Below are positions 618 to 45,142 of a DNA stretch of 64,000 nucleotides, one piece after another. Location of the stretch: contig DAOORA010000011.1 in assembly GCA_035389045.1 (NCBI GenBank), forward strand, positions 1-64,000, written 5' to 3'. Numbering within the stretch: the first letter of the stretch is position 1; every line of letters starts with the position of its first letter. A model generated the notes under the pieces. It ran no database searches and was not told the DNA's origin. It saw only the letters and a program-made list of their open reading frames with translations. Origin of the DNA: Bacteroidales bacterium. Lineage in GTDB: Bacteria; Bacteroidota; Bacteroidia; Bacteroidales; CAIWKO01. The position numbers were made by a program, and so were the translations under genes.

Positions 618-2477
618 ATGAAAAAGATATTTATATATATTACCTTGCATTTTCTGTTTTTCCTGACCGTCAGCGGACAGGAACAAAAAGTAAAACCTGA
701 CGAAAGCAGAAAAGTTGGCGGCGCGACCAAATCCGGTATTATTAAAACTGAATGTCAGGGTTTTGTCAATTCTCCGGGTACCGACCTGAAGTGGAGGCCC
801 ATTCTGACCCACAAAACCACTTCCTTAAGGCCGAAAGTTCCGGATAAAGAACTTATTGAAAAGATCAAATCAGAAAAACTAAAAACCAAATACCTGAAAT
901 CCAATGCGGATACGACGGATGAAAAATCGACCATGACCATAACACCCGTGGTGGGGACCAGTTACATGGCAAATACCAGCAATGGCAGTTCTCCGCTGGA
1001 TAATTCACTTGCCATCTCCAATGGCGGGTGGATCGTGAGTGTAGCCAACAAAACCATCGAATACGACGATATGAACGGGAACACGGTATATTACAATGAT
1101 CTGATTTCTTTCATCAACGATGCCAGCATTACAGGCGTATGCGATCCCGTAGTGATTTATGATGCCGCGGCAGACCGGTTCATTTTTTTCTGTCAGACAA
1201 GTCCGATCACCAGCAATTCCAAAATCCTGCTGTTTTTCTCTAAAACCAACAACCCGAATAATGGCTGGTGGTATTATAAACTTACCGGAAATCCTTTGGA
1301 TGATGACGAAGGCTTTGATTATCCCAAACTAGCCGTGTCGACCAATGAGCTGTATGTCACCGGAAATTTGTTTTATGAACCTGCTGGCACTTTTGACCAG
1401 GCGATTCTTTACCAGATAAATAAAAATAATGGTTATTCGGGATCAACCTTACACTGGCAATACTGGTACGATATATCAGGCTCGCCTTTCACATTACTTC
1501 CCGTGTCGTATGGACAGAGCGGCAGTTATGGCCCGGGATGTTACCTGGTGTCAACCATTCACTCGGGCAGTTCAAAAATCAAGTTTTATAACCTCACAGA
1601 TGACATGTCAGGAAATCCTTCGTTAGACCATTATAATGTTTCGACGCCTTCCTATTCTTCTGCCGCAAATTCATGGCAGTTCGGCACGACATGTAAGCTG
1701 GATAACGGCGATTGCCGGGCATTAAGCGGTTTTTATCTGAATGGCATCATTCATTTTGTTTTTCATAGTGATATTGGTAATGGATGGAATGGAATAAATT
1801 ATAATTGGATCATGGTAAGTATATAGATTAATTAATTTTTAATCTTCGGATTGTTGGGCAGTTATGATTATTCATATTCGTTAGTGGTGTCATATGTCAC
1901 ATTTATCAGCGATAAATCGGTGATGATAAACTTCGGCAGGGCAAGTTCTTCTATTTATCCGCAGGTGCGTGTTGTAAACTGCGACGACGCTATGAACTGG
2001 TCGGGCTCTATCCTTGTGAAATTAGGTCTCAGTTATGTTAGTTATATAGGCGATTCGGAATGTTGGGGCGATTACACAGGTGTATTCAGAAAATATAACA
2101 GCGTTTATCCCTCCGTATGGATAAGCGGGAGTTATGGCACATCGAACCATCGGTGGAATGCGTGGAATGCCGAAATCCATGACAACACCATAGTCGGAAT
2201 CCCGGAAATAGATTAGGAAAACAAAATGAAAGTGTTTCCCAACCCGATCGTTGAAACATTTACCATTGAATTCACTTTACCCGAAAAACGCAAATTTATT
2301 ATCAATATTCTGGATATTTCAGGAAAAATCGTAAAAGAACTGTATTCTGGAAATTCATTGAAAGGAATCAATTATTTTTCATTTAATAAAGCCAGCCTGC
2401 CGGCAGGAACTTATTTTCTGGTACTCAAAGCCAACTCTGACCTTATAAAAAATGAAAAAATCATTATTGCTGATTGA
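618..2477 (+). pseudogene. Secreted T9SS (type A CTD) protein interrupted by three in-frame stops
   Basis: ORFs 618-1826, 1851-2216 and 2226-2477 share one frame. Signal peptide at the start, VFPNP...GTYFL...KIII CTD at the end. Stops TAG 1824, TAA 1833, TAG 2214 each revert to Gln by T->C. Confidence 0.85.
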
Positions 2478-2760
2478 TATTTGTTGTATTCTTCTTGTCC
2501 TTGCCTCCTGCCACAACACAACAACTCTGAACCATAAAAAAATTAATGATACAAGTCATGTAACTTCGATAGCTCCTGCTGCTTCAGACACATCAAAAAT
2601 ATCGGGGGAAACTCCGGTATTGGGTTCTGTAGGTAATGATCAGGGAAAAATCAAGGATATCCATTCAAATTAATATGATGCATATCCGCTTATTCATCAT
2701 AGCCCTGATGATGGCAAGACAGATTCTATCAAAAATTTAAAAGCAAAACTAAAAAGATAG
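2452..2760 (+). pseudogene. Small lipoprotein with a probable premature TAA (2671-2673)
   Basis: Lipobox LASC after a hydrophobic stretch. The frame continues past TAA as YDAYPLIHHSPDDGKTDSIKNLKAKLKR to TAG at 2760. Confidence 0.55.
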
Positions 2761-2908
2761 TTCTTATGCCTGTATTCGCATCGGTAAAGTGGTCAGACGG
2801 TCGTCACTATATAAAAGTATTCATGAGGACGTTTTTGCTAGCAATGGTTGTGTTGATGCCATTTTTATAAAGCCAGAGATGGTATTTTTTCCAAAAAACA
2901 GTTCAAAA

Positions 2909-4270
2909 CTAATCATTTAATATGCACCTTAATTCCGGTATGACATCCAGGGTGTTTTCATGTCTTATTTGGTCAATAGAGCTTGTGAATTTTTTAAATT
3001 TAAGCGCGCTGACTTCATCCCATGATTTTTTTAAATGCTCAAATAAGAATAAAAATTGCTGTTTGATGTCCATTTTGTATTTATTTTTATAATCTTCTAT
3101 GTATTTCTCCAGCCTGGTGTAAACATCCTGCCGGACTGCATCAGGAAGTATACTTATATGAAACATAGCGGGATTTTCAACTATATTGATTTCAAAATTC
3201 TGCCAGTTATTTTTTTTCCTGATTACTCCGATTTCAATAAGACGGTCTATTACTTCAGGTAGCTGGAAAACATTCATAGCGCTTACCGTAATTGTTGGAA
3301 TGATAACCACACCAAGTTCGCTGATTATCCTTAGATTCATCTCAATTTTTTTCCATTTTGTCCCGGAGCGTATCAATTCGGCACGTTCATCAATATCATC
3401 TATACTGGGCGACACCCTCACATATCGGCCCCATTTAGCCTAATAATCCACTATGTTTTTATTCCTGTACTTCAGTATACTTAAGTTAGAATTATAATGT
3501 AGAAGAACATGATATTTTCTGCGTTCATCCAGCATTTCCAATAATTGCCAATGTTCATCCATCAGCAGCGGTTCTTTTTTTACAAAATAAATTTCTTCTA
3601 TCTGGTCAATGTGTTTTCTCATAATATCCATGTAATTGATTCGGGATGCAGATTCATTAGTAATTGATTTTTCAGGCATGTCTTCACTGAGCCAGCCAAG
3701 TTTTTTGGCATCATGGAGCCAGTTAGTGGAGGATTCTATTCCGCAGGTACGGCACTTATAATTGCATCTGTTGCTGAAACGAAAGTTCCAATATCTTAAA
3801 TCAATTTTGTCCAGACTTCCGTCATTGTGGGTTATGACAGGAATATCTTTAAGTTTAGAACGGAAATAACGGTTATAATTCAAGCGCGGACTTGTACCCG
3901 AGCATCGTTCTTGTTCATAACATTTGGCACACATGGCCGGTTTTTTTCCGTTGATCATGTTTCTACGGAGCGATTTCATATAGTTACCGTTCCATATTTC
4001 TTCAATGGTTTGTGTGGATAAATAATCGGCACAATCCAAATAATCCGGATTCATGCAACAATGTAACACCCTGCCGTCAGGCATGATATTCAGGTGTATC
4101 CAGGGCAGCACGCACAATCCCCCGGGAACATTTCTCATTTTTCTGGCCTTAAAAGCGTTCAGCCATCCGCTTAGGAACCGGAAACGATTTGGTACATGTA
4201 TTTCCGCAAGGATATTTCTTATTCTTCCCATGGAAAACAGCATATATTTAACATTACAAAATTTATACAT
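2909..4270 (-). pseudogene. Twitch/SPASM-type radical SAM protein (copy 1), split by TAG at a Trp position; GGE motif changed to KKE
   Basis: CVLPWIHL..PDG..LHCC N-domain and CNYKCRTC motif. ORFs 3440-4270 and 2909-3421 are in frame (VDY*AKWGRYVRVSPSID). Confidence 0.85.
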
Positions 4271-4357
4271 TTGGTTTTATACAGGCATTCTTCCTGCCAA
4301 AAATGTAAATTTAAAACATAACACAATAGTAACATTTTTTATCCCCGACTCAAATAA

Positions 4358-4527
4358 GGGCACTTCTAAAAATTTCAAAATTCTTCTTTCGTCTTCGTTC
4401 TTCCAATCCTTGTGTCCGGCAGATTCAGCACTTGTATGTAAGCTCAGCACACTGCGGTTTTCAGCACTTCGATTGCTTCGGGCTTTTTTGTTTTTAAAGC
4501 GCCCGATCAGGATTATTAGAGATGCAC
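4358..4527 (+). mobile_element. ~170-bp MITE-like element, family A, copy 1 (degenerate)
   Basis: Aligns over its full length with 12104-12273 and the reverse complement of 44972-45142; ends GGGCACTTCTA...TAGAGATGCAC. Confidence 0.8.
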
Positions 4528-4617
4528 ATAAATAATTTTTTTATATTAAATAAGATTCATATCGGATTTTTTAGCAAAACAAGGCGACACTTACCGACAA
4601 CACTCAATTACAGTGAG

Positions 4618-5955
4618 TTAAGGGCCAAGTACGCATTTCAACTCAGGTATTATATCTAAAGTGTTTTCACCCCTGATCCTGTCGATGGCATTTGTAAATT
4701 CTTTAAATTTCAAACAGTTTTTTTCATTCCAGGGTTTTTCTAAATGCCATAATAGAGGTACAAAATGATCCCTTATCTCAACACAGTGTTTTCCTTCGTA
4801 ATCATTTATATAGTTTTCCAACCTTATGTGAATTTTTTTCCTTTCATTATCCGGAAGTATGCATACATGAAATTCTGCTGGTGCAGTTAATATATTTAAT
4901 TCAAAGTTTTTCCAGTTTTCATTTCCTTGTTTAATAACTCCGATTGCAATCATACGATCTATGATTTCCGGAATTCTAAATACATTCATGGCGCTTACAG
5001 TAATATAAGGACTAACATGTATACCAATTTCGTTGACCGCTATTAAATTTTGTTCAACATTCTTCCAAATAGTTCCAGATCGAATCAATTCAGCGCGTTC
5101 ATCTATTTCATCAATACTCGCTATCAAAAATATGCGACGTGCATACTTATTTCAGTAATCTAACGCATTTTTATTTTTATACTTTAATATGCTTAAATTT
5201 GTATTATAAGAAATATTTACATCGTTTCTTTGACACTTATCTAACATTTCAAGAATTTGCCAATGCTCATCCATGAGCAAAGGCTCACCACCAACAAAAT
5301 TAATTTGTACAATAGTATTTATATGTTTTTTAAAAAAATCCGCATTTCTTTTTTGGTCTATCGACTCTATTCTGGTCGGTTTGTTAGAAGTGTTTTTGCT
5401 AATCCATTCTAATTCCCTGGCATTAGGAATCCAGGAACTGGAGTAGTGCGGTCCGCAATAACGACATTTATTATTACAAATATTACTGAATCGGAAATCC
5501 CAAAATCTTAATTCTACTTTATCAACATGGCCATCGCTTTCTGTGATAACAGGAATTTCTTTTAGCTTAAATTCAAAAAGACTGTTATACAATATACGCC
5601 AGCTTGTTCCGGTTAGGCTTTCCTTTTCAAAACAACGGGAACAAACTGCGGGCTTAATCCCTTTGATCATTTTCTTTCGCAAGGACTTCATAAAATCACC
5701 ATTCCAAATCTCTCCAATGGTTTGTTTGTTAATGTCTCCTGCAACAGTACCATAATCAGCGCTCATGCAACAATGTAACACACTGCCGTCAGGCATGATA
5801 TTCAGGTGTATCCATGGCAGCACGCACAATCCCCCGGGAACATTTCTCATTTTTCTGGCCTTAAAAACATCCAGCCATCCGCTTAGGAACCGGAAACGAT
5901 TTGGTATATGTATTTCCGCAATGATATCTCTTAAACTTCCCTGGGAAAAGAACAT
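4618..5955 (-). pseudogene. Twitch/SPASM-type radical SAM protein (copy 2), split by TGA at the same Trp position
   Basis: CNNKCRYC and FVGGEP motifs. ORFs 5152-5955 and 4618-5127 are in frame (LDY*NKYARRIFLIASID). Confidence 0.85.
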
Positions 5956-6397
5956 ATATTTAACCTTTCTGAATTTTTACATTTGGTTTTATACACAGGC
6001 ATTTATACTGTCAAAAAAAATAAATTTACTACATAAAGCAAAAGTAACCATCTTTTTTTTGCCACAACCACAATTTAACGGATTCATTATTTATTATTTG
6101 AATTAAACTAACATAGCGTAAAATATTTGTAGCTCAATAAAACTATATTTGCCCACCCGGATAAAAACATTGCATTGCACTACACATTTACCCCGGGCAA
6201 ACTCCGCAATTGTCGCTTCACGAGCCCCGATACATGGTTTTCTTTGCGCTGTTACGAATTTTCCTGCAAACAATGTTGCATCGCCGGTGCAACATGAATT
6301 ATGCGAATCATCATTTGAAACGGAGTTTTATTGTTCATAAAAAAATAATGTAATACTTTTGTAGTACAAATACCATGAATATTACCTAACTACAGCA

Positions 6398-7477
6398 ATG
6401 AACGCGACAGATCAAAATGACAGTCAGAATTTAATCACCTGGAACGGGATGCGTATTGACAAGGCAAAAATGGAGGAATTTTGCAGGAACAACAATAAGA
6501 TATCCTGGTATATCAGCTACCGCTGTAATTTCAAATGCGATTATTGCGGTGAATGGGCTTATGGTCAACAAGCTGTTAAGCCGATTGATCTGGCAAAATT
6601 GTCAGGAGGCCTTGATTTCCTTCCGAAAGACTGGATATTTTACATCAGTGGCGGAGAACCTTTTCTGGATAAAAATTTCACAGAAATTTGTCACGAAATC
6701 ACAAAAAGGCACTATTTATCTTTCAGTTCCAATCTTACCACACCCAATATTTTTGAGTTTGCCGACAAAATCAATCCGGATAAATGCCTGTTTATCAATG
6801 CCTCTGTCCATCCCACCCAAAGAGAAAAAACAGATAAGGACTTCAGTTTATTTATAGAAAAAATCTTATATCTTCAAAAAAAAGGTTTTAATATTATTGT
6901 GGTTTATGTGGCACATCCAACCTTATTAGGCAGAATCATATCAGATTTTGAAAGGCTCAGATCGCATGGAATAGAAAAGGTACATGTAAAAAATTTCATT
7001 GGAGATTTCAATGGCAACAGTTATCCCTTTTCATACAGTGCCGCCCAAAAAGAATTATTGCTGAGCATGGAGTCGGATTATCCGGAATTTGAACTCATGA
7101 ACCAGACATACAATTTTCATGGGCAGTTATGTATCGCCGGTCAAAAATCTTTTGCAATGGACCGAAACGGCAACCTGATGAGGTGTTCCAGCGACAAACG
7201 TGTCTATGGCAATCTTTTCGAAAAATCCATCCGGATCGATTCTTCACCCAAACCCTGCACTCAGGACAACTATGCCTGCCTGCATGAATGTATTGAATTC
7301 AACCTGAAGACCAAAGGAAAAAAAATCGCCATCTTAAAAGCAGATTTTATTGAAAAGAAAACAAAATTTTCTTCCAGAGATTATAGAAGAAATAAATTCT
7401 GGAAACTGATCGGAGATATAGAAAAAGCCGGTATCCCGTTAGGAAAAATCAAAAAGGCTTTTGTGAAATCAAAATAA
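6398..7477 (+). CDS. Radical SAM protein with C-terminal SPASM/twitch-like Cys cluster
   Basis: CNFKCDYC, SGGEP, and C-terminal CIAG...G.LMRC...GNL...PC...C..C. Confidence 0.9.
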   Translation: MNATDQNDSQNLITWNGMRIDKAKMEEFCRNNNKISWYISYRCNFKCDYCGEWAYGQQAVKPIDLAKLSGGLDFLPKDWIFYISGGEPFLDKNFTEICHEITKRHYLSFSSNLTTPNIFEFADKINPDKCLFINASVHPTQREKTDKDFSLFIEKILYLQKKGFNIIVVYVAHPTLLGRIISDFERLRSHGIEKVHVKNFIGDFNGNSYPFSYSAAQKELLLSMESDYPEFELMNQTYNFHGQLCIAGQKSFAMDRNGNLMRCSSDKRVYGNLFEKSIRIDSSPKPCTQDNYACLHECIEFNLKTKGKKIAILKADFIEKKTKFSSRDYRRNKFWKLIGDIEKAGIPLGKIKKAFVKSK

Positions 7478-7541
7478 TGAAATCCCATACGGACTTCTCA
7501 CATTTTTTCGCAGTACCGGGCATGACCATCAAAAATAATTT

Positions 7542-8843
7542 ATGAAAGATAACATACAAGAAATCTGTGGTCTGCCTGCAAAAAAACTTTTCAAATTTGC
7601 TCAAAAGTATTTATGTGTTTTAATAAACTATTTCATGAAGTGCATTATCATCCCTTTTAATTTTTTGATAATGAAACCCTTTCATAAAATAGCACACCGG
7701 CTTCCGCCTTCGCTGCAACGACTTGAATATAAACTGGGTATTCATTACCTCAGGTACTATCCCTTCCCGCGCGAGAATCCCTTTATCCCCGAATCAGACA
7801 AAGTCATCATTTTTTTTCCCGGAATAGGCTGGGATAACATGAAACAGCGGCATCACCACCTTCCACGCGCTTTTGTAAAAGCAGGCTGGACCGCTGTTTA
7901 TTTAACCCAGGACATCGAGGGGGACAAGGTTTTCGGTATAAAAAGAATCCACGAACGATTTTTTCTCTGCACTAATATCAAATTATTAAAGAACATTAAA
8001 AATCCCTGGATTTACATGAATTACACATTTTATATGTTCTACCTTCACTATTTTAAAGAATACCGGCTGATTTATGATTACCTTGATAAACTCGAAATCC
8101 ATACGTTCTATAACAAAAAAATGGTCAGGGAGCATAGAAAGGCTCTGCAAATTGCTGATATAGTAATGGCATCGTCGACGTCACTCCGTGATGAACTGAT
8201 AAGCATCAGGAAGGATACCCTGCTGGTTCCCAATGCTGTTTTTCCTGAAGATTTTGTTTACAAAAAAGAACTGAACCCTCCTGCAGACCTGAAATATATT
8301 GTTGACCAAAGAAAGCCAGTCATCGGTTACTATGGTATCTTTTCAAAGTGGAAGATCGATTACGAATTATTACAACGGGCCGCTGCAAAACTACCTGAAT
8401 ACAATTTCGTGTTGATAGGTCCTGACTTTGATCACAGCATTCAGGATTACAACTGGGAAAATTTTTCAAATATTTACCTTCTGGGAAAAAAGAAATATGA
8501 GGAGTTGCCCGATTATGCCTTTTTTTTCGATGCAGCCATATTACCCTTGCTTGTAAATGAAATCACAAATGCCATTTCGCCTGTCAAGTTGTTTGAATAT
8601 TTCGCCATGAAGCTTCCTGTGGTATCCACCGGTATTGCAGAATGCAGGAACTTCAAATCTGTGCTGATTTCACAAGATCATGAGGATTTTATCGCTAAGG
8701 TCAGAAAAGCAATAAAACAAAAAAACGATCCCGCATACCTGGCTTTACTGCAGAATGACCTCGCCCGCAACACCTGGGATTACCGGTGCAAAACGATTTT
8801 GGAACATATGAACGGGGGACAGGAAAAACACACAAATCAGTAA
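7542..8843 (+). CDS. GT-B glycosyltransferase (TuaH-like, GT4-type), paralogue 1
   Basis: QRHHHLPRAF, YDYLD, VPNAV, IGYYG, SPVKLFEYFAMKLPVVST. The true start may be a later Met. Confidence 0.85.
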   Translation: MKDNIQEICGLPAKKLFKFAQKYLCVLINYFMKCIIIPFNFLIMKPFHKIAHRLPPSLQRLEYKLGIHYLRYYPFPRENPFIPESDKVIIFFPGIGWDNMKQRHHHLPRAFVKAGWTAVYLTQDIEGDKVFGIKRIHERFFLCTNIKLLKNIKNPWIYMNYTFYMFYLHYFKEYRLIYDYLDKLEIHTFYNKKMVREHRKALQIADIVMASSTSLRDELISIRKDTLLVPNAVFPEDFVYKKELNPPADLKYIVDQRKPVIGYYGIFSKWKIDYELLQRAAAKLPEYNFVLIGPDFDHSIQDYNWENFSNIYLLGKKKYEELPDYAFFFDAAILPLLVNEITNAISPVKLFEYFAMKLPVVSTGIAECRNFKSVLISQDHEDFIAKVRKAIKQKNDPAYLALLQNDLARNTWDYRCKTILEHMNGGQEKHTNQ

Positions 8844-11369: not shown

Positions 11370-12104
11370 ATGGACTATGCAATAAAACTTGACAATGTAA
11401 CGGTAAGTTATCTGCAAAGCAGAAACGGTGTAACGTCTGTCAAGGAATTTCTTTTAAAAGCCTCTTTTATTAAAATATTCAAAAAGCATCAGGTATTACA
11501 CGATTTTAATCTTGAAATTTCAAAAGGTGAATCTATTGCGTTCCTGGGTCCGAATGGATGCGGAAAAAGCACCCTTTTGCGCACCATTGCAGGCATCGTA
11601 GTCCCCGATAAGGGAACTGTTGACGTCAGAATACCTGTATCTCCACTTCTGTCGCTGGGCGCCGGCGTTGAACTGGAACTCACCGGCTATGACAATATCC
11701 GTATAGCACTGGTTCTTTCCGGAAATTATCATAGGAAGACCCGGCGGGAGATGATCGACAGGATTGCAGAATTTGCAGAACTATCAAGAGAACAACTAAA
11801 AAAACCGGCCAAGATGTTCTCCACCGGTATGCTTGCACGACTTACCTTCAGCAGTCTTATGGTAAACCAGCCGGAGCTGCTCATGATTGATGAAGTACTT
11901 GCTGTGGGCGACTGGGGCTTTCAGATGAAATGCAAAAAACGTATTCATGAAATTATTGATAACGGCGCCACCCTGCTGTTTGTTTCTCATAATCCCAAAG
12001 AAGCCATTGAACTATGCAAACGGGGAATCTGTATCATTGAAGGAAAGAAGATCTTTGACGGAAATATTGATGAAGCAGCAGACATTTACAATAAATTGTT
12101 TTAG
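11370..12104 (+). CDS. wzt: Polysaccharide ABC transporter ATP-binding subunit without C-terminal carbohydrate-binding domain
   Basis: Walker A GPNGCGKSTLL, FSTGM signature, IDEVLAVGD, VSH. Confidence 0.92.
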   Translation: MDYAIKLDNVTVSYLQSRNGVTSVKEFLLKASFIKIFKKHQVLHDFNLEISKGESIAFLGPNGCGKSTLLRTIAGIVVPDKGTVDVRIPVSPLLSLGAGVELELTGYDNIRIALVLSGNYHRKTRREMIDRIAEFAELSREQLKKPAKMFSTGMLARLTFSSLMVNQPELLMIDEVLAVGDWGFQMKCKKRIHEIIDNGATLLFVSHNPKEAIELCKRGICIIEGKKIFDGNIDEAADIYNKLF

Positions 12105-12273
12105 GGCACCTCTATAAACTTCAAATTTCTTCGTTCGTCTTCGTTCTTCAAATCCTTGCGTCCGGCAGCCTCAGCACAGGCATGTAAGCAAAGTACACTA
12201 CGGTTTTCAGAACTTCGACTGCCTCGAACTTTTTTGTTTTAGAGGCGCCCGATCAAGGTTATTAGAGATGCCC
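12104..12273 (+). mobile_element. ~170-bp MITE-like element, family A, copy 2
   Basis: Terminal inverted repeats GGGCACCTCTA / TAGAGATGCCC; the first G is the last base of the wzt TAG stop. Confidence 0.85.
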
Positions 12274-44845: not shown

Positions 44846-44971
44846 TGTATTATGTTATTATTTATAAATCACAAATCATTAATTCAATAATCCGACGGTC
44901 ATTAATTTCCGATTCCTGTATATTAGTTCCTGAACAATTAAAATATTCCTCAGGCACATACAATAATTTAA

Positions 44972-45142
44972 GGGCATCTCTAATAACCCCGATCGGGCGT
45001 TTCTAAAAACAAAAAAGTCCGAGGCCGTCGAAGTTCTGAAAACCGCAGTGTGCTGAGCGTACATGCCTGTGCTGAGCCTGCCGAACGCAAGGATTTGAAG
45101 AACGAAGACGAATGAATAAATTTGAAGTTCTTAGAGGTGCCC
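44972..45142 (-). mobile_element. ~170-bp MITE-like element, family A, copy 3 (inverted)
   Basis: GGGCATCTCTA...TAGAGGTGCCC; reverse complement aligns with 12104-12273. Confidence 0.85.

Follow-up and report, generated by a model that had tools for sequence, protein, structure and literature searches.

Why are four consecutive genes, placed on both strands at the start of a Bacteroidales contig, broken by stop codons and not by a single frameshift? The window considered here is a stretch of 64,000 nt that opens a 91,770-nt contig (DAOORA010000011.1) of an AT-rich genome of 4.46 Mb, assembled in 135 contigs and 96.3% complete. The genes are listed below together with a tract of C>T changes that runs through them. 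The changes in this tract are strand-specific, clustered, derived and heritable. The explanation that we consider probable is a burst of plus-strand C>T changes over about 3.6 kb, inherited in a Bacteroidota lineage from wastewater and caused by deamination of cytosine residues while the DNA was single-stranded (ssDNA).

618 to 2477, plus strand: gene 1, 619 codons, encoding a secreted protein with a C-terminal sorting domain of the type IX secretion system; pseudogene
2452 to 2760, plus strand: gene 2, 102 codons, encoding a small lipoprotein-like product; stop at 2671
2909 to 4270, minus strand: rSAM-A, a radical-SAM/SPASM paralogue; pseudogene
4618 to 5955, minus strand: rSAM-B, a radical-SAM/SPASM paralogue; pseudogene
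1781 to 5424, plus strand: the C>T tract, from public contigs and outgroup alignments

The six in-frame stops named in the original prediction are all where it placed them: TAG at 1824, TAA at 1833 and TAG at 2214 in gene 1, TAA at 2671 in gene 2, and tryptophan codons turned into TAG in rSAM-A (3440-3442) and into TGA in rSAM-B (5152-5154). None of the four genes carries a frameshift, and translations read through the stops align end to end with intact homologues. The last 83 codons of gene 1 match the Por_Secre_tail domain (E=2.4e-12), and in both rSAM genes a SPASM-type cluster domain at the N-terminus is combined with a radical-SAM core. Recoding of stop codons or an alternative genetic code is excluded, as the internal stops use all three codons and each of these also ends normal genes: the natural ends are TGA for gene 1, TAG for gene 2 and rSAM-A, and TAA for rSAM-B, and the long open reading frames (ORFs) in the window end in TAA 14 times, in TGA 11 times and in TAG nine times.

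Homologues were collected by a DNA search of 41 genomes, 14 of which, including the window's own, gave matches; a run-together tandem gene pair, a partial gene 1 homologue and a duplicate locus were left out of the counts. The resulting gene 1 set has seven members, all from the same genus (six full-length and one without the first 54 residues), and the rSAM set has 13: two paralogues on contig C108 of the window's own genome, one rSAM-B orthologue with 81% nucleotide identity, and ten copies from one relative. Gene 1 is open in all seven homologues, at 58-65% amino acid identity. Gene 2 also follows gene 1 in the relatives, and a tblastn search of the seven relatives' loci reads through the position of its stop. 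In a protein database the C-terminal half of gene 1 had 361 matches, the best full-length relative being 65% identical; the 120 of these that were listed are mostly 611-647 aa long, with six shorter and two longer. A near-identical intact allele of gene 1 did not turn up in this database, and among 21 shorter matches only the window's own truncated ORFs are near-identical. The product of the truncated 120-aa ORF is recorded on two other contigs, the longest of 35,114 nt, and neither is the 91,770-nt contig. Among 596 pattern matches in metagenome contigs we found no relative of the intact 402-aa part of gene 1.

The two interrupted tryptophan codons are the clearest witnesses. All 13 rSAM homologues are open and carry tryptophan at the places where rSAM-A and rSAM-B have stops, and these are the only two stops proven, by comparison of the sequences, to be plus-strand C>T changes. 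Both genes are stopped at the same homologous codon, by hits at its two different G residues; with about 12-13 tryptophan codons per gene, the probability of this coincidence is approximately 1 in 12, assuming one hit per gene at a random tryptophan codon. That every stop reverts by T>C, as had been claimed, is trivial for the other four, because any stop in a plus-strand gene reverts in this way at its first base. These four had been read as former glutamine codons; glutamine is aligned to the stop at 1833 in two of seven homologues (the others have E in three, V in one and T in one) and to the stop at 2671 in a single homologue, but in none to the stop at 1824 or to that at 2214, which falls in a variable linker.

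The substitution spectrum against the homologues is heavily unbalanced towards plus-strand C>T, as predicted. Alignment columns of gene 1 that are invariant in the seven homologues contain eight C>T changes in the window, and these are concentrated in one stretch: seven of 20 C are changed in 1818-2117 against one of 86 elsewhere (Fisher p=2e-5), whereas G>A changes in the same stretch number zero of 32 (p=6e-4 against the seven of 20). Under a majority rule the C>T changes of gene 1 concentrate in 1781-1906 and 2011-2104. Most of them alter the middle base of a codon for a conserved residue (T>I/M, S>F/L, P>S, A>V, R>C, H>Y). Over its first 1,160 nt and its last 250 nt the gene looks normally conserved. 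The conserved motifs singled out in the original prediction were indeed hit in this way: the arginine of RWGDY, present in seven of seven gene 1 homologues, is a cysteine in the window; rSAM-A has GGEP>KKEP and WDFRFSN>WNFRFSN (D>N, site 3787); and rSAM-B has G>E at 5408. Compared with its two paralogues in the same genome, rSAM-A has T where the other has C at 85 and 84 sites, and C where the other has T at 50 and 48 (p=0.003 and 0.002), whereas A/G and G/A differences are balanced at 51 to 47. For rSAM-B against the 81% orthologue the excess is confined to 4888-5421, where the numbers are 24 and six (p=0.001).

These features bear on the simplest alternative, ordinary pseudogene decay under AT-biased mutation, with the strand bias due to chance or to replication asymmetry. 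The genome is AT-rich, some of the derived changes in the window are of other kinds, rSAM-B has A where the orthologue has G at 17 sites against nine the other way, and a repeat copy inside the tract (described below) is an old, diverged one, all of which decay would accommodate. However, decay would have to produce four genes without indels or frameshifts, C>T at seven of 20 sites with G>A at zero of 32 in the same stretch, and patchy damage within otherwise conserved genes that begins upstream of the first stop. We favour a burst over decay because frameshifts are missing, the hits fall on second positions of conserved residues, and the rest of gene 1 is conserved. The flanks, moreover, are identical to those of a close strain, so little time has passed. 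We consider decay very unlikely.

Close strains from public sequencing runs make the case independently of the homologues. Parts of 1500-5600 of the window are present in seven runs from seven studies, sampled from activated sludge, anaerobic digesters and wastewater between 2016 and 2025; the best-holding run, labelled X1, contains 97% of the sampled words. Three further runs enter the comparison: X2, X3 (from a different study) and X4 (2021). Differences were counted in contigs that are at least 90% alike to the window, and the contigs are those of Logan, that is, assemblies and not reads. Places at which the window has T and the other strain C make up 27 of 40 differences in X1, 36 of 69 in X2, five of six in X3 and 30 of 38 in X4, and among transitions 27 of 32, 36 of 51, five of five and 30 of 35, respectively. 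A>G differences number one, five, zero and one in the same order, T>C exceeds each other transition class 5-30 times, and no indels were reported in this comparison. This excess counts against decay.

The alternative state is linked on contigs. Six sites in 2011-2047 carry C at a depth of 12.3 of 52.8 in X1, and C is the only allele in X2. The latter run also has C at 3157, 3184, 3264 and 3441, the last of which means that the tryptophan codon of rSAM-A (TGG) is intact there; X4 has C at 2039, 2047, 3264 and 5313. Outgroups carry C at the same places: seven of seven at 2023 and 2295, five of seven at 2011 and 2047, 12 of 13 at 3157 and 5313, ten of 13 at 3264, and 13 of 13 at 3441. It follows that T is the derived state and arose in the lineage of the window. 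No claim is made for an intermediate, partly mutated strain in X2, with C at 3157-3441 and identity to the window at 3667-3947, as depth there is about 3x and the run may hold both strains. Likewise, a loose end at 3575 in X1 was rejected as an unmutated GGEP allele; 15 of 30 letters agree past the join, and the sequence is a paralogue.

The original prediction had left room for an artefact, with a single damaged molecule as its source. Damage to or amplification of a template molecule, or an assembly chimera, might be suspected because the tract lies within 6 kb of the contig end and because the evidence comes from contigs and not from reads. The window allele, however, occurs at full depth: in X1, contigs that match the window letter for letter extend over 26-1732, 1703-1943, 2246-2451, 2422-3571, 3623-4100, 4165-5812 and 5877-8000, an independent assembly that reproduces the window exactly over seven stretches, with a word depth mostly of 35-42, equal in tract and flanks (24.2 for the 1703-1943 contig). 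In one sample the mutated allele stands at about 40x and the C allele at 12-18x. X3 has contigs without differences at 2515-2678 (including the TAA at 2671), 3731-3918 (including 3787) and 5068-5375 (including the stop at 5152 as well as 5144 and 5313). An artefact is rejected because of the full depth, the second study, the C in close strains and the polarity given by the outgroups; the signature of library or ancient-DNA damage is likewise absent at 35-42x, with linked C and T haplotypes on contigs and identical contigs in a second study. This explanation can be regarded as extremely improbable.

The same contigs delimit the tract. Flanking contigs without any difference lie at 26-1732 and 5877-8000 in X1, at 1387-1537 in X4, and at 5965-6425, 7133-7475 and 7457-7830 in X2, which confines the left edge to 1733-1781 and the right edge to 5424-5877. 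The earlier statement that no comparable damage occurs beyond about 6 kb thus agrees with the X1 contig at 5877-8000 and the X2 contigs past 5965. At the other end, in positions 1-60 of the window, contigs of two other runs diverge at 55/56 in both directions, and these loose ends indicate a structural variant or repeat at the contig start.

Between 1781 and 5424 (3,644 nt) we count 49 inferred C>T sites, a lower bound made up of 18 from public contigs and 38 from outgroup alignments, with seven shared. They are unevenly spread, with a hit density that declines from left to right and four dense patches:

1781 to 1906, plus strand: dense patch 1, in which 12 of the original 21 C became T
2011 to 2104, plus strand: dense patch 2, in which 11 of the original 23 C became T; contains the six sites seen as C in X1 (as the minor allele) and in X2
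2295 to 2348, plus strand: dense patch 3, six of 12 C converted; within 2246-2451
3576 to 3601, plus strand: dense patch 4, five of eight C converted; includes the GGEP>KKEP change of rSAM-A

Conversion in these patches of 26-126 nt reaches 48-62%, against 2-3% between them, and this plausibly exceeds polymerase error. Two compositional arguments proved less useful than the sites themselves. The C-free run at 1765-1810 is real, but as evidence it is weak, since the genome has 178 C-free and 190 G-free runs of at least 46 nt. Base composition was dropped altogether: judged by |log(G/A)-log(C/T)|, the 300-nt segment at 1751 stands out no further than the top 0.5% of the genome.

The base context of the sites is broad, in agreement with the varied contexts reported earlier and unlike that of the TC-specific toxin DddA. 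The preceding base is A at 20 sites, T at 14, G at eight and C at seven, compared with T 267, A 152, C 143 and G 136 for the remaining C (chi-square p=0.015); the mild excess of a preceding A may come from the finding of sites at threonine codons. An A follows 16 of the 49 sites, compared with 273 of the 698 C that remain. No TC, CC, CpA or CpG rule is apparent at the 49 sites.

A different source of one-strand C>T changes would be misincorporation of T opposite G while the plus strand was made under dCTP starvation, for example as the result of a dCTP-deaminase defence, or by an error-prone polymerase. Defences that deplete nucleotides have been described in a preprint (10.1101/2021.04.26.441389), and this model predicts C>T on the nascent strand only and over a bounded stretch. 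A loss of half of the C in patches of 26-126 nt, with 2-3% lost between them, is nevertheless hard to obtain by mispairing, and no A>G excess accompanies it. We regard misincorporation as highly improbable. Deamination of ssDNA would explain the pattern better, because half of the C is lost over 26-126 nt, A>G changes and indels do not accompany the loss, and the other strand is untouched. Kilobases of the plus strand would have been single-stranded, their cytosines would have been deaminated to uracil, and the uracils would then have been copied as T, leaving half-converted patches separated by lightly hit stretches. The six nonsense codons, together with the hits in catalytic motifs, would have inactivated four genes at the edge of the putative surface-glycan locus described below. 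The original prediction of a one-strand deamination scar over about 4 kb is thus upheld as to a real, strand-specific tract of about 3.6 kb, while deamination and the agent are inferred from its pattern, and a single event would be an assumption.

Several observations weigh against this explanation. Besides the reliance of the close-strain comparison on assemblies, only 40 of its 98 difference sites, 21 of them T>C, are listed individually, and X1 and X3, which both carry the window allele, have the same year and the same habitat label, so that a single campaign may have produced both. The residue aligned to the stop at 1824 is K in six of seven homologues and L in one. The rSAM-B signal is local and modest, and at conserved sites alone rSAM-A (coding strand) has G>A at 11 of 106 and C>T at two of 39 (p=0.51), an outcome without asymmetry that is explained by the small number of conserved C. 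Conserved sites of the window also bear derived changes of other types (A>C at 2289, A>T at 2319, G>T at 2355). The repeat copy in the tract contributes nine transversions. As regards the agent, a search of the 96.3%-complete genome for a toxin-type deaminase found none, only ORFs of housekeeping size (159-356 aa) with the cytidine-deaminase fold; a DddA-like model had no match in the genome, nor in any of the control genomes, which makes this negative uninformative. The genome also encodes one protein of the uracil-DNA glycosylase (UDG) family, which should remove uracil.

The search for further tracts adds a last point of this kind. A genome-wide scan for in-frame stops with coding-like frames on either side gave 176 candidates, mostly TAA ends of adjacent genes in the same frame, and a scan for chains of stops gave 29, of which four were inspected and 25 judged from the list; it is too crude to exclude other tracts. 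Three of the inspected chains are antisense shadows (contigs C12, C65 and C4), and the fourth (C3) is a normal gene end followed by a lone TAG. The three frames (C12 at about 36.6-37.9 kb, C65 at about 0.9-1.8 kb and C4 at about 74.7-75.8 kb) are long and rich in Val, Ala, Gly, Thr and Pro, with TAG at regular spacing, and look like antisense shadows of tandem-repeat surface-protein genes and not like broken genes. The lone in-frame TAG, at C3:23416, lies unclustered in a PBP-like ORF, which may be another nonsense pseudogene.

Which agent could have acted on the single strand? To our knowledge, SsdA and its class (BaDTF2) are the only described bacterial enzymes that fit a context-free, one-strand pattern. 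SsdA has been reported to act on ssDNA and to cause C>T changes after any preceding base (PMC7901873, PMC12494967), and changes after every base are what the tract displays. The likeness, as far as these reports describe the enzyme, is one of mutation pattern alone, on which membership is not claimable. A gene of this class was not found in the genome, and clustered tracts in a target chromosome are not described in the available part of PMC7901873. Given deamination, our tentative candidate for the agent is an enzyme that deaminates cytosine in ssDNA irrespective of context, either one like SsdA/BaDTF2 or one not yet described, while chemical, non-enzymatic deamination of long-lived ssDNA would be quite unlikely.

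Other mutators are further removed. DddA acts on double-stranded DNA at 5'-TC, on both strands and genome-wide. Cells surviving it carry heritable C:G>T:A changes (PMC7901873), and to that extent, as described there, resemble the strain studied here; however, only 14 of 49 sites follow a T, a smaller share than among the remaining C (267 of 698), and one strand only is hit, so that neither the 5'-TC context nor the both-strand signature of the DddA type (BaDTF1) is present. The same figures speak against the TpC context of APOBEC enzymes. APOBEC3G hypermutates retroviral minus-strand cDNA, and repeat-induced point mutation (RIP) in fungi strikes duplicated DNA with a preference for CpA. The tract shares with both the one-strand runs of C>T (G>A) that turn tryptophan codons into stops and kill genes, but it lacks a CC or CpA preference, and, unlike in RIP, gene 1, the densest target, has no second copy in the genome (blastn) and the rSAM copies are only 68% identical. 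Diversity-generating retroelements make adenine-specific changes between a template and a variable repeat. Such an element was rejected as the source, the changes being at C and the gene 1 region lacking a second genome copy; a reverse transcriptase was not searched for.

The closest parallel in form is kataegis, the strand-coordinated clusters of C>T that AID/APOBEC enzymes leave on long ssDNA in yeast and cancer genomes (PMC3542020, PMC6786661). As far as these accounts portray it, the tract resembles kataegis in having many one-strand C>T changes in a few kb, spaced far below 1 kb and in patches, with ssDNA damage as the best fit. Runs of at least six successive substitutions spaced by at most 1 kb, by which kataegis is recognised, are present (12 in 126 nt and 11 in 94 nt), and the substitutions are of one kind and on one strand. 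Unlike kataegis, the tract lies in a bacterial host without APOBEC, has no TC or WRC preference, displays neither C>G nor rearrangement, and is a fixed feature of a lineage in the wild, not of a tumour or a clone from the laboratory. Full-text searches of the literature turned up no description of a fixed, strand-coordinated cluster of C>T changes from the chromosome of a wild bacterium, which is no proof of absence.

How the plus strand came to be exposed is the remaining step. Exposure by transcription from an internal promoter, as for AID, was considered and rejected, since a sigma-70-type scan found no promoter-like site just upstream of the tract; the Bacteroidota -7 motif has no plus-strand match between 486 and 4265. 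Plain transcription could account for gene 1, whereas the two antisense rSAM genes would require read-through. Exposure at the replication fork is disfavoured as well. The cumulative GC skew drops along the window, reaching -2.53, and the minus strand carries 31 of its 44 ORFs; the plus strand, being rich in C and carrying few of the ORFs, is therefore probably the leading-strand template, as judged from the skew of one contig. Deaminases associated with the fork are reported to prefer the lagging-strand template (PMC7672425), and the strand struck here is the C-rich one.

A recombination or repair intermediate, such as an integrated donor strand or a resected end, would be the favoured route over fork and transcription, because there is one bounded tract and the cell survived, and a fragment would be fixed in this way without damage to the whole genome. 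Past the tract lie a further radical-SAM gene, three glycosyltransferases and an ABC-2 exporter pair, which we interpret as a surface-glycan locus. Such loci undergo frequent recombination.

A special case of this route is the import of a strand that was already deaminated: a fragment of a few kb from a related strain, taken up single-stranded through transformation or conjugation or else damaged outside cells, would have brought uracils in its integrated strand and displaced the resident copy through homologous recombination. The tract is single and bounded and has the size of a recombination tract, the cell survived a local loss of about 50% of its C, and the glycosyltransferase and ABC-2 exporter genes are adjacent. 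A weak hint comes from 2246-2451: of the 17 differences from the close strain found there, 11 are not T>C, and derived states occur in both lineages, compared with zero differences from the close strain in about 1,160 nt of the right flank. This additional divergence is, however, limited to 206 nt; X2 contigs within the tract (3667-3947 and 4493-4852) have no differences, although the window strain itself is their possible source; the genome encodes the UDG-family protein; and neither an integrase nor a transfer gene was noticed within 1-36 kb. We consider import of damaged DNA possible but unlikely. Rather unlikely too, if a little easier to entertain, is the notion that the tract is the wild footprint of an ssDNA cytosine deaminase, left by a toxin that the cell survived or by an APOBEC-like attack on incoming DNA that was then recombined.

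The repeat copy mentioned above had been offered as a further witness to the burst:

4355 to 4540, plus strand: copy of a repeat resembling a miniature inverted-repeat transposable element (MITE), inside the tract; 22 differences from the family consensus

Its predicted seven or so C>T changes are found against the consensus of 22 copies, but they come with 15 other differences (three G>A, one T>C, two A>G and nine transversions), and another copy also has seven. With 15 of its 22 differences not C>T, the copy was rejected as a clean witness. The repeat, of about 180 nt with terminal inverted ends, also occurs at 12103-12271 and 44962-45142; the genome holds 22 copies of at least 140 nt (blastn), and the family is present in other genomes of the genus. 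A recent spread is suggested by six copies that lack the same internal stretch of about 24 nt and hardly depart from the consensus. A 47-nt element at 4539-4585 adjoins the copy in the tract and recurs at 83-89% identity on six other contigs of the genome and in several relatives.

The rSAM genes have a history of their own. At their 5' ends and over the adjoining 100 nt or so upstream (4051-4290 and 5766-6010), rSAM-A and rSAM-B are near-identical, and the remainder of the genes is 68% identical; the differences within this block have no C>T bias, and the N-terminal extension common to both genes is missing from the 81% orthologue. To judge from the alignments, this looks like a recent gene conversion or duplication of a promoter-plus-start block. 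One relative of the same genus carries at least ten SPASM/radical-SAM copies (loci L014-L018), mostly in tandem arrays of two to four, and the two further copies on C108 in the window's own genome (locus L013) are likewise in tandem.

Deaminase toxins are known to mutagenise the survivors of laboratory experiments. If the burst of plus-strand C>T changes was enzymatic, then a single episode can silence several adjacent genes, here those for a secreted surface protein and for enzymes beside a glycan locus, and the mutated product can become the major strain. Mutated and unmutated haplotypes are matched in public data, so that spectrum, boundaries and route can be read from them, and clustered nonsense codons without frameshifts provide a pattern by which further cases may be sought in metagenomes. 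Should the tract be the footprint of a deaminase, it would be a bacterial counterpart of kataegis and of retroviral hypermutation, observed in a community in which the unmutated sister strain still lives beside it.

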